NCBI GenBank assembly: GCA_016930035.1
Contig: JAFGHQ010000042.1
Coordinates: forward strand, 16,437-80,436
DNA from: Gammaproteobacteria bacterium
GTDB taxonomy: Bacteria; Pseudomonadota; Gammaproteobacteria; UBA12402
Length of the DNA stretch: 64,000 bases
Reading direction: 5' to 3'
Position numbers: made by a program
Shown here: piece by piece, positions 39,001-45,000 of the stretch
How the letters are laid out: every line of letters starts with the position of its first letter
Numbering within the stretch: the stretch's first letter is position 1

Positions 39001-42000
39001 GTTCAGTTCTTGCGAGGTCGCTAGGATTTCTTCCAGTGTGCAAAGTCGCCGATCTATAGTAAAATTGTAAATAGGCTAAAATATTACAATAAAATCATAC
39101 TAATATTAAGACTGAGAGTTTATAAAATTTTCAAGGCGTTTTCTGTTTTCTTTTTCTTGTTTTGCTTTGAAATAGATCTCTAAGAAAGTTATTTCGGGCA
39201 CTATTGGGCAGAATGCATAAATAATTCGAATGCCACTTTTTGCGCCACGGCCTTTTAGACTGCAACACTGAAATTTCTTAATTTTATAAAATTTTAATTT
39301 TTCACTATTTCCAACTCCACAAATTTCAAAAATACTTCCATTGTCTATCTTTTTGCAGTGAAGTAGTTCTATCCGATATCTTTTTGTCACCTCTAAATCT
39401 TTTACCAAAGAAGGAAATTTTTTTAGTAATTTTTTAAAATCACGATCAAATTCTTTTGTTTTATTATATTTCATCGTCATCATATTGCCTTACTGAAAAT
39501 TCAGGCGTTCGACAAAAAGCCGATTCATAATCAATGGGTTGTAAATGATTGGTTCCGATCCAGGGCACATCTTTGTGCGAATATTCCTCCATTTGTCTGG
39601 CACTAAAATCCTTAAATCGTTCAATTTCCTGATCAATAAGTTCTTTTTCGTTAGCTGAAAAATTCGACAAATTCGCATGTCTTCTAGGCAAATATTTCTT
39701 TTGGTCGTATTGAAAATATTTTTTAACGACCCGCATCAAATCGCCGTCTTTTTCCATTTGTTGGGCAATTTCTTTAAAGGCAACTGGTGTTGGCCCATGA
39801 TGATTTTTGATATATTTCGCGCCGATCAGTTGTTCTTCATATTTTTCATAATAATCAAAATCGATAAAATACATGATTTTGCAAATGACCGATTCGCCGA
39901 TATTGGGACGCGCACCAATTTTTTCTAAGATATACAAAAATACTTCTTTGAATTTGCTGACTTTTTCTTGTGGCACAGATATGCGTATTTCTGGTACTGA
40001 TTTTGCGCATTTTGAAGATTTTTCCAATTTGACATCTGGGGTGGGGTTTTCTCTGCCAGCCAAAAAATCTTCCAGCGATAAACCGAAAAATCGAGCTAGA
40101 TTTTGCGCCTCTTCGACCAACATTTTACGTGCCCCATTTTCAAGCTGCGCATAAGTTGGGCGTGATATGCCTATTTTATCGGCCAAAAATTCTTGGCTCA
40201 CACCATGTTTTTTACGAAGTTTTTTTAAGAAAGTATTCATAATTTAAAGTAAAGTTAAGTAGTGAAAGAATGAAAAAATTATACGAAATGTAAAATATTC
40301 TGTCAAATGAATTGTTGGGATTATTTTCAATTCATATTCGAAAACAGAGCCCGAAGTTTAAAAATACTATCGGGGACTGACAGAGACTAGAATTTTTTAA
40401 AACAGTTTGTCGCGCGCAGCGCGACACATTCGTTTTTAATTCTTCATTTTTAATTTTTAATTAATTAACGTCATATACGACGTTAATTAAGTGCTTCATA
40501 GACTTGTTCGAATAAATAGCCCATGTGAACACGGTTGGTGAAGTCGAGTTTGTTGGTGTTGATTTTGATGAGCGGGTTTTTGTGAAAGCCGCATCGAACG
40601 ACATCTTCGGGGAAGGTTTTGTAAAAATCATTAAAAGCGCTAATTTCACGATAAGTCCAACCGCCGTCCATTTCCATGGCGCGCGCACGTTCTTGTATGC
40701 GCTGCCAGGCTAATTTCGAACTGCCTTGTAATACGATCAATAAATCGGCTGAGGGTAATGCTCGACTAACTTGTTGAAATTCTGTCATTAATAAATCCAG
40801 TTCGTTTTCGGTTAAAAGGCCATCTTGATGGAAAAGTTTACAAAACACCAAAATATCTTCAGCTAGTGATCGGTCTTTCACGTAGCTATGTTGGCCATCC
40901 TTTCCTCGTTTTCGTAAATCTGCTCGCATGCTTAAAAAATGTTTTTGCAAATCGTAACAATATCTTTTTTTATCTTTGAGAAATCTTTCCAGAAGTGGGT
41001 TTTGCTCGGGGGCTTCGAACAACGCTTGAATCCGTAAGCTTTGGTGCATTAACGTAGTCACCGTTGATTTACCCATGCCAACATTGCCCGCAACGGTAAT
41101 TAAAGTTGGATGTTTCTTAAGATAATCTTCGAGTTTACGTTCCGCATCGACGACCCGAATTGCTGCCGCAGTTTCAGGCAAAGAAATCCATTCGCGAATG
41201 CCCGGTGTGGTGATACGTAAATTGAGTTCGAGTATTTTGTCAATGAGTCGCTGGATAATACTTTCGACATTTTGAGTAATACTATTTTCATCGGTGACAT
41301 CGATCACCATAATCGGGCATTTAAGATGTTGGCTGGCAAACGTTTCATAAAGATTATTGAGTAGTTCAATATAATCGCGCGAAATATGCGCTTCACTGGG
41401 GCGCGCGTGTTTTTTAATATTTTCCATTAAATCATCGGTTTTAGCGCGCAAATAGATCACTAAATCGGGCTCGCTGATTTGGTTTGTCATAAATTTAAAG
41501 GCGCGTTGATATGTTTTAAATTCTTCTTCACTCATAAATCCCAGTATTTTTTGAGCGGTTCCAAAAATATAATAATCTTCAAAAATGGTGCGGTCTTCGA
41601 GAACAATTCCTTGTGCTTGATCAATTTTTTCTTGGCGCATAAGGCGACCATTAAGGAATTCTATTTGCGCTAAGAATGCATTTTTACCAGGATTTTCATA
41701 AAAAGCTTTTAATACGGCTTCATCGATTTCTTCAGGGAAAATATTGATTTTTTGATTAGCCACACTATCAGCAAGACAAGATAAAAGTCGTTTGCTTATT
41801 TCAGGGGAAGTTAAAGCTTTAATCAGCTGGGCTTTTCCTGAACCAATATTACCAATAATACCAATTCTTAAATTTTCCATAGAATTCTCCGAAAATTTAT
41901 AAAAAACATACCGTAAAATTAGCTTACTATGATAAAAAGCGATAAATTTGTTCTGTTAAATAAAGTGGTAGGGAAATAAGTTGATACTCAATTAAATCAC

Positions 42001-45000
42001 CAAGATTATCTTTGACCTTTACTTCTGTCACGTTTGGATAATCTGCGTTTAATCTGATTGCTTTTTTCAACCCTTTTTGTTTTATGAATGTTCGTAAAGA
42101 ACGAAGCGTTCCCGTTTTGCCTGCTTTAACTTCGACCGGAATAATCTGGGTATCTTTCTGAATGAGATAATCGATCTCTGCCTCAGAACTTTTTTTCTCA
42201 GATACCCAGTAATGTAGCCTTGGGTCCACATAATACGGTTGAATAACTCGTAATAATTGTCCAACTAATTGCTCAGCGATACCACCTTCATTTACTAGTT
42301 TAATTGTATCAACTATGCTTTGATCAGAAAACGATAATCCCATTGCGGCGGATACTAAACCTACATCAAGAAATATCACTTTGAATATATTTTCTTTTAT
42401 TTCAGCATTTAAAGGAATTCCATTTGCGGAACAACTCCAAACCTTGTGGCAAATCCTCGCTTTGCATAATAAATTAAGCGCCTTTTTTAACGGTTCAAAA
42501 CGAATATCTTTATTCACAAAACTATACTTGAATTTTTTTCCAATCAACAAAGGAATGGCTCTCAATATTTCATCTAATCGTTCAACGGGAATACGTTTTG
42601 CATATTTTGAAAAATCATCCCGATAGGTTGCCAAAATATTTTGATGAATTTCATTAATTTGCAGCAATGATTGATTTTTGACCCAACTATCTACAGCGGC
42701 AGGCATTCCCCCTACTAATAAATATTCTCTCAAAAATTGCCAAAGCCGCTCATGAATCGCCTCAGGTATTTCTTCGCTCAGATCATAACGTGACAAAAAT
42801 TTATGAAGTTGGTTTTGGCCTTTTGCTAACAAAAATTCTTCAAATGACATGGGCTCCAAATACATATATTGAATTCTGCCCACTGGCATACTAAATTCGT
42901 GATCATTTAATGCAAAATCTAAAAGAGAACCCGTTGCCACAACTGCTAGCTCTGGTTTTTCTTCGGCAAACCAACGTAATTTGGCTAGCAATTCTGGGGC
43001 CGCTTGAATTTCATCTAAAAAAAGTAATGCTTTTTCTGGAATTATTTCTCGATTCAAATATGATTCAAGTCTAATTAAAATTTTTTCCGGATCATTATCT
43101 TTAAATAGTGTTTTTAACCGAAAATCTCTTTCAAAATTAAGCTCTAAAAGATCAAGCTTTAATTGAAAAGCCAAATTCCGAACCACCCAAGTTTTACCTA
43201 CTTGGCGCGCACCTCGAATAATAAGCGGTTTTCGATCGGATTGCCTTATCCAAGCCTTTAATTTTTCTAAGATTTTTCTATTCATGTCGACTCCTTCTTT
43301 AGATTAATGTTAACATGATTTTAGAAAAAATCAACATTTCGGCGTTAAAATTAGGGGTAATTTTAACGTGCTTTACGTTAAAATTAGGGGTAATTTTAAC
43401 ATCGGATCAAGCCCCATACTTAACCAGAATACCTTAAGGAGCTGTTGAAATCTGCCTGTTAGTCATCCTGAACTTGATTCAGGATCCAGTAAAAACAAAG
43501 ACTTATAGTCTTTGTTTTTTTGAAAAAGTGCGGATTTCAACAGCCCCCTTAACAGAAACTTATGCGAAGCATTTTTTTATCAAGTGTCATTGATTTATTT
43601 CTTTGCTTCCCAAATTTCAGGTTCCATGTCCCCCATGCTCCAATATTCTACTCGATAGGGCTTTACTATCACCACGGCATAATTAGGATTATCAGGAGTT
43701 TGAAAAAACTGAGCTATCTCGGGATTCCAAAAAGCCTCTCGCTCGGCTTTATCTTGAGTAACAGTAGCGCGCCCCTGGATTTGTATATAATCTTTCCAAT
43801 TTTTTGGATCCGTGACCCCGCATGTTAAATGCACCTCGGGATTTTTTTGAATTTGTTTGACTTTCCTAGAACTTATAAAAGTAGAAAACCGAATCGTCAT
43901 GTCATCGGACACAGCACCCGACACATAACGCACCCAAGGTTTATTGTCCTCGGTAACCGTTGCAAAGCTCACCACTTCTGATTGTTTGATCAATTGAATG
44001 ATCTTATCTTTTAACATCATAAAACACCTCTGTTATAACAATTTAATAACTTCCGCAAAAAAACTCCTATCGTACGGACAGGTCGCGACCTGTCTATACA
44101 AGGGGCTCTTGGGATCTGAATTTTTTTACAAAATCAAAGATTATAAATCTTTGATTTTTATTCGTCTCATCCAGGAGACTCTCGAGCTCGCCGCTTCCTT
44201 GCTCGTTAAAATTCGTTCCCGACGAATTTTTCTGGATCCCGGATCAAGTCCGGGATGACAAATGTGCGGACCCCAACACCCCCTACAATACTTTTTAATG
44301 TTCTTTCATCCGTTTTGTTTTTTATACGCTTTTAAAACTTCGATCACATAATCAATGTCTGCGGCAGTATGATCGCCATTGATTTGGAAACGAATTTCTT
44401 CAGAACCTTTAGGGACAACTGGGTAATTCAGACCTGTCGCTAAAATCCCGTGATCGGTAAGCCATTGCACAATTTCTGAGGTCTTTTGCGTATCTCTGAC
44501 CATCAGTGGAGTGACAGGATGTGGCCCGGGAATGGTTTCATAGCCATTATCAACTAAACCCTTTTCAAATCGAGCGGTCATCGCTTGGATATGTTTTAAA
44601 ATGCGTAGTCCTTCTTCGCTTTCTACGATATCCAACACTTTGATAGCAGCAGCTGCTTCGCCTACTGTAATAGGATTAGAATAGATGTACATCGGGGCTG
44701 TTTCACGAAGAAAATTAATCACTGCTTTAGACGCAACCACATATCCCCCGTTAACTCCAAACGCTTTCCCAAGTGTACCAATTAAAATATCGACTTTAGC
44801 GCCGGTAACTTCTTCAGTGCCTCTGCCGGTTTTGCCATAGGCACCAACACCATGCGAATCATCCGCAATCGTTGTGACGCCTTCTTCAAATTTATCCTCG
44901 AATTTCTGACATATGTTGACGAATTCTTGAAAAGGACAGTAATCCCCTCTCATCGAAAAAACGCCGTCTGTGATCACGAGACATCGTTTTCCCTGCCCTA

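Follow-up and report, generated by a model that had tools for sequence, protein, structure and literature searches.

Two connected questions are raised by a 64,000-nucleotide stretch of a gammaproteobacterial genome (contig JAFGHQ010000042.1, positions 16,437 to 80,436 of the forward strand; hereafter the window, meaning this whole stretch). Here, a gene for a fused tandem deoxynucleoside kinase (dNK) lies beside that of an AAA+ ATPase, two copies of a palindrome precede the ATPase gene, and a candidate toxin–antitoxin (TA) pair follows close by. Do these genes make up one functional unit, as a preliminary description of the locus had proposed, and which protein reads the palindromes? Our analysis points to three unrelated, independent gene units that probably became neighbors by chance—the ATPase cassette, the fused kinase and the TA pair—with the ATPase as the likeliest binder of its own sites. 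The sites belong to the ATPase gene: they form a phased, promoter-associated array that is inherited with this gene across phyla.

The palindrome itself, GTTAAAATTAGGGGTAATTTTAAC (24 bp), was found exactly twice in the window, at 43344–43367 and 43377–43400 (33 bp from start to start), in agreement with the two tandem copies described previously. The count stays at two when three mismatches are allowed, with 0 matches expected by chance. Both copies form perfect inverted repeats of 10 bp centered on GGGG, and the true repeated unit measures 25 bp. All genes of the block lie on the minus strand, and the promoter-distal copy (43377–43400) reads GTTAAAATTACCCCTAATTTTAAC on the coding strand, with the core AAAATTACCCCTAATTTT; the promoter-proximal copy (43344–43367), likewise an exact match, is followed after 9 nt by a putative −35 box. 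This position of the pair, just upstream of the hexamer, agrees with its earlier characterization as operator-like. The putative sigma-70 promoter of the ATPase gene (43307–43334, minus strand), read from the sequence, combines a −35 box TTGATT (43334–43329), a 16-nt spacer and a TG-extended −10 box TAACAT (43312–43307), and is followed by a ribosome-binding site (RBS), AAGGAG (43296–43291, minus strand), and by the coding sequence for a protein of 452 amino acids (41927–43285, minus strand). In the direction of transcription, the palindromes, promoter, RBS and ATPase gene are succeeded by the kinase gene, a terminator, the TA promoter, the antitoxin gene and the toxin candidate. The ATPase had been placed after the kinase; on the coding strand, it lies upstream and the kinase follows.

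The same arrangement recurs at close orthologues of the ATPase. In orthologues with 68–73% identity, located in unrelated genomic contexts (L006/L007, L008 and L009 = L012), the sequence GTTAAAAATGCCnnCATTTTTAAC is present twice at a 33-bp spacing and at the same distance to the ATG as in the window; moreover, the layout of site, −35 box, −10 box and RBS aligns with that of the window in L006, L008 and L012. We extended the comparison to 80 species-representative loci, searching the 160 nt upstream of the gene for direct repeats at spacings of 28–38 bp with a threshold of 15 matching positions out of 18. A direct repeat at or above this threshold was detected in 41 of the 80 species-level loci (44–68% identity), and its spacing was 33 bp in 34 of these, 32 bp in five and 34 bp in two. 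The taxa include Legionellales, Coxiellaceae, Chlamydiae, Dependentiae, Myxococcales and Planctomycetota. As controls, none of 400 dinucleotide shuffles and 8 of 2925 other 160-nt segments of the same loci reached a score of 15. The repeat unit follows the pattern AAAA-N3-CC-N5-TTTT and is present in two to four copies, with the (A)CC core always oriented with the gene. It is weakly palindromic in most clades (e.g., AAAACAACCGTCTCTTTT), and a perfect 24-bp palindrome in the clade of the window. Where the proximal site falls depends on the clade: that of the window has it 8–9 nt upstream of the −35 box, many have it directly abutting a TTGACTT −35 box, and others (e.g., L043, L044, L046, L052, L070 and L087) have it within the spacer or across the −10 box. 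All sites found lie in the 200 nt upstream of the gene, and the rest of the 3 kb on each side is free of them.

The sequence of the site differs between clades of the ATPase protein. Among plasmid homologues (33–40% identity; Criblamydia, Glaesserella, Segatella and Fusobacterium), two or three repeats of quite different sequences occur at 32–33 bp, and a plasmid homologue from Parabacteroides has two copies 66 bp apart. The palindromes of the window thus appear to be a clade-specific version of a cis element that accompanies ATPase genes throughout the family. The window also encodes a second paralogue with AAA_14 and DUF4143 matches (18677–19882, minus strand; 401 amino acids, DUF4143 match partial) beside tRNA-Ser and tRNA-Arg genes (16961–18508). 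No 33-bp repeats were found upstream of this second gene; a single palindrome, AAAAAAATAACAATTTTTTT, lies between its putative −10 box and the start codon. Additionally, a distant AAA_14/DUF4143 gene (373 amino acids) sits inside a molybdenum-cofactor operon at 6324–7445 of L001, a locus from a relative described below, between MoaA-like and MoaC genes, and its promoter region carries a different, overlapping palindrome pair (GACTTTTTGTCA...TGACAAAAAGTC).

The domain matches of the window ATPase (AAA_14, E = 4.9e-24; DUF4143, E = 7.7e-29) agree with its earlier assignment to the COG1373 type. The protein also gives a full-length match to the PADLOC model for PDC-S01 (PDLC04788, E = 9.4e-153, residues 1–451). 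Its domain order comprises an AAA_14 NTPase (Walker A GARQVGKT, Walker B LDE), a helical region, a winged helix (about residues 234–306) and a C-terminal PD-(D/E)xK nuclease with the residues E338, D372 and E385-x-K387. Across 22 sequences, G25, G30, K31, T32, D91, E92, E338, D372, E385 and K387 are invariant. The predicted fold, an NTPase followed by helical and winged-helix domains, resembles those of STAND and Orc1/Cdc6 proteins, among them the archaeal ATPases PABY2304 (2qen) and SSO1545 (2fna). Judged by these predicted features, the window ATPase is an ordinary member of PDC-S01, a common family of candidate phage-defense proteins. PDC systems are 145 untested candidates that emerged from a "guilt-by-embedding" approach (bioRxiv 10.1101/2024.01.29.577857). 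PDC-S01, an ATPase fused to a PD-(D/E)xK domain, has been ranked fourth in frequency among prokaryotic defenses, with validation pending (PMC12988326), and DUF4143/COG1373 had been placed in the PD-(D/E)XK superfamily with function unknown (PMC3424549). Our literature search on the mechanism of DUF4143, COG1373 and PDC-S01 proteins returned surveys and classifications only, and phased promoter repeats were not found described in this literature.

The relatives of the window are Legionellales- and Coxiellaceae-like metagenome-assembled genomes. Homologues of its ATPase occupy a variety of positions. The homologue of Legionella pneumophila sits between HipBA, an integrase and Mrr; others lie beside CsrA, after TauE or next to ankyrin genes, and homologues were found on 63 plasmids. 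In the window, the TA pair, at a distance of two genes, is the sole defense-type neighbor of the ATPase.

The ATPase itself is the likeliest binder of the repeats because the sites travel with its gene alone, into unrelated contexts and phyla, and because their sequence varies among clades of the protein. The preliminary description had looked to a local regulator as the binding protein; with the sites accompanying the ATPase alone, the constant candidate is the ATPase and not the helix-turn-helix (HTH) antitoxin. In the mechanism we propose, the ATPase would bind the phased sites cooperatively and regulate its own transcription. A distance of 33 bp corresponds to about three helical turns, so that the sites would lie on approximately one face of the helix. 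Repression would be the likelier general mode, since some clades place the site inside the promoter. Autoregulation by the ATPase is, as far as the sequences indicate, the most likely role of the sites. We also advance a broader proposal tentatively, at a little less than even confidence: that PDC-S01 proteins are sequence-specific DNA binders assembling cooperatively on phased repeats of 32–34 bp at their own promoters, with a co-evolving self-operator as an integral part of the system. If true, this self-operator could act as an autoregulatory switch, or as a docking platform controlling release of the nuclease, and the palindrome of the window would be one clade's version of it. PDC-S01 (COG1373) has been counted in tens of thousands of genomes with no mechanism assigned. 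The phased array gives a concrete handle on the family—it predicts defined DNA binding and autoregulation, and offers ready-made binding and reporter probes for any member.

Several observations weigh against an ATPase that reads and regulates its own promoter. The ATPase promoter of the window, a call made from sequence, is weak, matching 8 of 12 consensus positions and falling below the threshold of the scan tool. Among the 80 loci, 39 remain under the repeat threshold, some with a single site and others with nothing clear. The position of the sites varies by clade (about −56 and −89 in the clade of the window; flush with the −35 box, in the spacer or at the −10 box elsewhere), which makes one common regulatory sign, repression or activation, uncertain. 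Finally, site divergence tracks the winged helix (rho 0.08) no better than other regions of the protein (0.22–0.26); with this covariation test negative, the DNA may be read by the nuclease domain or by another surface of the ATPase.

This variable placement with respect to the −35 and −10 boxes would also suit a different function, in which the repeats are not regulatory operators but working DNA sites of the ATPase-nuclease. They might, for instance, serve an Orc1/Cdc6-like initiator as loading or origin sites in the manner of iterons, or keep the nuclease docked on self DNA in an inactive state until it is triggered. The likeness of the fold to Orc1/Cdc6 and STAND NTPases, the presence of a nuclease domain and the two to four phased direct repeats beside the gene, as in iterons or ORB elements, all speak for such a role. 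Nevertheless, we regard it as unlikely: the proximal site nearly always abuts or overlaps the promoter hexamers, as an operator would, the ATPase genes stand singly among housekeeping genes without other replication or mobility genes, and no second set of sites was found downstream of the gene.

Somewhat less probable again is a separate regulator of the ATPase promoter, either the HTH-Panacea antitoxin or a host transcription factor. An HTH protein is indeed encoded 3 kb away, and the covariation test did not point to the winged helix of the ATPase. However, the TA promoter and the rest of the window are free of further palindrome copies, and orthologous ATPase loci keep their sites without a Panacea or HTH neighbor. 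A universal host factor is further argued against by site sequences that differ between clades in similar hosts. Self-binding by the ATPase accordingly remains our preferred account of the repeats, and the question becomes whether the two other units of the block are tied to it.

The fused kinase (40483–41880, minus strand; 465 amino acids) does contain two complete dNK domains in one polypeptide, as had been noted: a domain search yielded two PF01712 stretches (E = 2.6e-67), and motif alignment places the N-terminal domain at about residues 1–215 (41236–41880) and the C-terminal domain at about residues 259–465 (40486–41106). The view that such a fusion is unusual did not survive comparison, as full-length fused homologues of 465–470 amino acids are plentiful. 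A search of 5.8 billion clustered proteins, at the 90% cluster level, gave at least 120 clusters (120 among the matches listed), with lengths of 422–516 amino acids, identities of 51–100% to the kinase and nearly always 100% query coverage; at least 115 clusters show 51–88% identity at 100% coverage of the window kinase. Their named sources include metagenome-assembled genomes of Gammaproteobacteria, Cloacimonadota and Deltaproteobacteria. In an exhaustive HMMER search against representatives at 50% identity, the family corresponds to one representative, with some 20 more clusters of two-domain length at 27–41% identity. Stand-alone single-domain relatives of the two halves also exist, at 44–47% identity overall: P0246 matches the N half only (45%) and P0248 the C half only (47%), and neither adjoins a partner gene. 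The two halves of the window kinase are only 22% identical to each other and therefore represent a fusion of two old dNK paralogues and not a recent internal duplication. We found no paper on the fused family in a literature search for a described fused bacterial dNK.

The genes around the kinase change with every one of the three relatives that were compared (five loci). In the 88%-identical relative (L001), ThyX and ExbB/ExbD genes lie beside it; in the others, the neighbors are PadR and PMT_2, or SDR and ribulose-phosphate epimerase. At the DNA level, the kinase gene alone is common to the window and these loci. In L001, thyX (Thy1, 9080–9703) is divergently adjacent to the fused kinase, a pairing absent from the window and consistent with a role in supplying deoxynucleoside triphosphates. 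The kinase is predicted to be a salvage enzyme and is an ordinary member of a conserved, widespread family. The preliminary description had named widespread, core fused orthologues with an established salvage role and no islet context as the outcome that would speak against its proposal. Fused orthologues are indeed widespread and their context is variable, so that this outcome has largely come about, with salvage as a predicted role. This result is mostly deflationary, as the fusion marks a normal, widespread family and not a niche adaptation.

What does distinguish the kinase of the window is the state of its N half. The C half is canonical, with the motifs GNVGMGKST, E289-x-P, DRS and a LID sequence RIQERARAME (R394, R398 and R400), all of them invariant in the family. 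The N half has a Walker A motif GNIGSGKA, in which Ala replaces Ser/Thr, an intact DRT motif and the LID sequence NIKKHARPSE. The family pattern in this LID is RIKKRGRxSE, to which the R-I-K-K-R-G-R-x-x-E of solved dNKs such as the Mycoplasma dAK can be aligned, so that two of the three arginines are lost in the window protein (N154 and H158, with R160 kept). We counted these motifs over 120 family sequences, 118 of which have a residue in the Walker A column. The arginines are present at position 154 in 112 of 120 sequences, at position 158 in 118 and at position 160 in 119; Asn at position 154 is found in the window clade, and His at position 158 in the window protein only. The residue after the Walker A lysine of the N half is Ser or Thr in 116 of 118 sequences, and Ala occurs only in the window protein and in an 88%-identical relative (P0002). 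E50, D96-R97-T98, E289 and D336-R337-S338 are invariant or nearly so, and most family members keep canonical catalytic motifs in both halves. The earlier remark that the first LID lacks its conserved arginines therefore holds for this protein in two of three positions and is confined to its clade, being no feature of the family; the GKA in place of GK[ST] is a second change in the N half that it had not mentioned.

In a comparison with L001, the N and C halves gave ratios of nonsynonymous to synonymous substitution rates (dN/dS) of 0.057 and 0.030, respectively, rough values given that dS is saturated. By this measure, the N half evolves faster, yet clearly remains under purifying selection. 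Judging from the motifs only, the N half is probably, in this clade, a weakened or non-catalytic domain, perhaps serving as structural or regulatory partner of a competent C half. A caution comes from the AlphaFold 2 model, in which the individual domains are confident (pLDDT 86) and the packing between them is unreliable (pTM 0.53), so that no intramolecular pseudo-dimer can be asserted. Decay of N-domain motifs under continued selection would make this kinase a neat example from nature of a pseudo-dimer in which one half drifts to a non-catalytic role.

Only 46 nt separate the ATPase gene from the kinase gene, and a promoter scan of this gap revealed neither a convincing kinase promoter nor a terminator; the kinase may therefore be transcribed, in this genome, by read-through from the ATPase promoter. 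Downstream of the kinase, a G+C-rich hairpin followed by a T-run (40408–40426, minus strand) is the likely intrinsic terminator of its transcript. The adjacent TA module reported previously was recovered as an open reading frame with an N-terminal HTH_3 domain and a SocA_Panacea domain (E = 2.1e-18), the antitoxin candidate (39464–40240, minus strand), beside a small open reading frame for a toxin candidate of 125 amino acids (39106–39483, minus strand) that overlaps the antitoxin gene by 20 nt. Searches of Pfam (with E values up to 10), NCBIfam and PADLOC gave no match for the toxin candidate, and its best match in the PDB, HigB-2, is non-significant (E = 0.73). A sigma-70 promoter of perfect consensus (TTGACA-17-TATAAT, 12/12; 40278–40306, minus strand) precedes the antitoxin gene. 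We predict the pair to be a TA system of the Panacea type with its own consensus promoter.

With the three units described, the proposal that kinase, ATPase with palindromes and TA pair form one small accessory islet, serving nucleoside salvage in an intracellular niche or defense, can be weighed as a whole. The genes share one strand, the short gap between ATPase and kinase would allow co-transcription, the ATPase family is a defense candidate and TA modules are often found in defense regions; moreover, the toxin gene is low in G+C (z −2.8). The independence of the parts makes this proposal very improbable nonetheless. Not only do the neighbors of the kinase vary from relative to relative, but a search within 3 kb of the ATPase at 86 loci turned up no dNK, no Panacea antitoxin and no gene for this toxin, so that the block did not recur as a trio in either set. 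The kinase is typical of the window in composition (z +0.3) and the ATPase is no outlier (z −1.0), with a G+C content at third codon positions at −1.4 standard deviations from the window mean; composition thus lends no support to a recent acquisition of either gene. The TA pair has a promoter of its own, and a terminator sets the kinase apart from it. A metagenome scan with the neighboring KBL-like gene retrieved no syntenic relative, and the best relatives, 80% identical, shared only the adjacent epimerase-family gene (labeled TDH). Two pairs of repeats were considered as islet ends and rejected. The first, 59-nt inverted repeats at 38322–38380 and 43462–43520, is a dispersed two-hairpin repeat with at least seven copies in the window; the second, a 43-nt pair around the TA genes (38679–38721 and 40421–40463), is low-complexity A/T sequence beside G+C hairpins, with no third copy. 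The juxtaposition of the three units is best read as incidental.

Least credible is a role of the palindromes at the RNA level, as hairpins that terminate the upstream PNPOx-like gene or structure a leader, or the idea that they are copies of intergenic palindromic repeats. The perfect 10-bp inverted repeats and the other hairpin repeats of the same intergenic region might evoke such readings, but these fail on the two copies in 64 kb against at least seven of the dispersed element, on an A/T-rich stem with no T-run after it on the coding strand, on Rfam searches in which no family reached threshold and only sub-threshold hairpin noise appeared, and on relatives that keep the 33-bp direct phasing and the ACC orientation with mostly poor palindromes, so that DNA sequence and spacing are conserved and not pairing.

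The dispersed intergenic element merits a description of its own. It measures about 59 nt, consists of two hairpins (AATCAAAGAtTATAAgTCTTTGATT and GGATCCTGAATCAAGTTCAGGATGAC) and occurs in both orientations about once per 9 kb, with copies at 9453–9508, 16755–16810, 22820–22875, 31954–32009, 34500–34525, 38322–38380 and 43462–43520 and a partial one at 44130–44161. It looks like a repetitive extragenic palindrome (REP)-like or bidirectional-terminator repeat. The spacer that separates the PNPOx-like gene from the palindromes (43431–43548) is framed by a longer inverted repeat (GCTGTTGAAATC...GATTTCAACAGC) around one REP-like copy, and may be a composite insertion resembling a miniature inverted-repeat transposable element. 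A long, near-perfect G+C-rich hairpin (GTGTCGCTCCCGCCTTCGCCCCG...CGGGGCGAAGGCGGGAGCGACAC) at 38713–38777 has A/T-rich flanks with a 7-nt period; its A/T flank and GTCGC edge are 88% complementary to 40421–40463 downstream of the kinase, and Rfam returned only sub-threshold, miRNA-like noise for it. Further along, a protein of 1113 amino acids (34602–37943, minus strand) combines a eukaryote-type BEACH domain (E = 4e-69) with ankyrin repeats. Probably this protein serves an intracellular bacterium as a eukaryote-like effector, and its presence would fit an intracellular lifestyle. Just downstream of its gene, in an A/T-rich spacer, lies a G+C-rich 44-nt tandem repeat (38081–38197; 2.3 copies, 96% match) whose flanks resemble short open reading frames for repeat peptides.

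Each of the three units has counterparts among known systems. The closest parallels to the kinase are the non-TK1 dNKs of PF01712 (Dm-dNK, human dCK and dGK, and the Mycoplasma dAK, 2jaq/2jas), with which both halves share the P-loop, the catalytic Glu, the (E/D)R(S/T) motif and the LID. The window kinase differs from them in having two domains per chain and, in its N half, a GKA motif and one of three LID arginines. In the heterodimeric dAK/dGK (dAK/dCK) of Lactobacillus acidophilus R-26 and in the paired kinases of Bacillus, two paralogous dNK subunits form one enzyme. The fused kinase could be a covalent equivalent of such pairs. The subunits of the Lactobacillus enzyme resemble each other far more closely than the two window halves do, and, in contrast to the heterodimers, each window half has stand-alone relatives that do not adjoin a partner gene. 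The TA unit is arranged like PanA/Panacea (SocA-like) pairs, with the HTH and SocA_Panacea gene immediately upstream of a small open reading frame that it overlaps; its toxin candidate falls outside the Pfam, NCBIfam and PADLOC families. Finally, the ATPase shares only 11–18% identity with STAND and Orc1/Cdc6 proteins and, unlike the former, has no C-terminal sensor repeat domain, ending instead in a PD-(D/E)xK nuclease. Nothing sets it apart from PDC-S01, a family of solitary genes whose surroundings vary and frequently include TA, Mrr or integrase genes, and which are also often carried by plasmids. What our analysis adds to the picture of this family is the array of phased repeats, spaced by 32–34 bp, at its members' own promoters.

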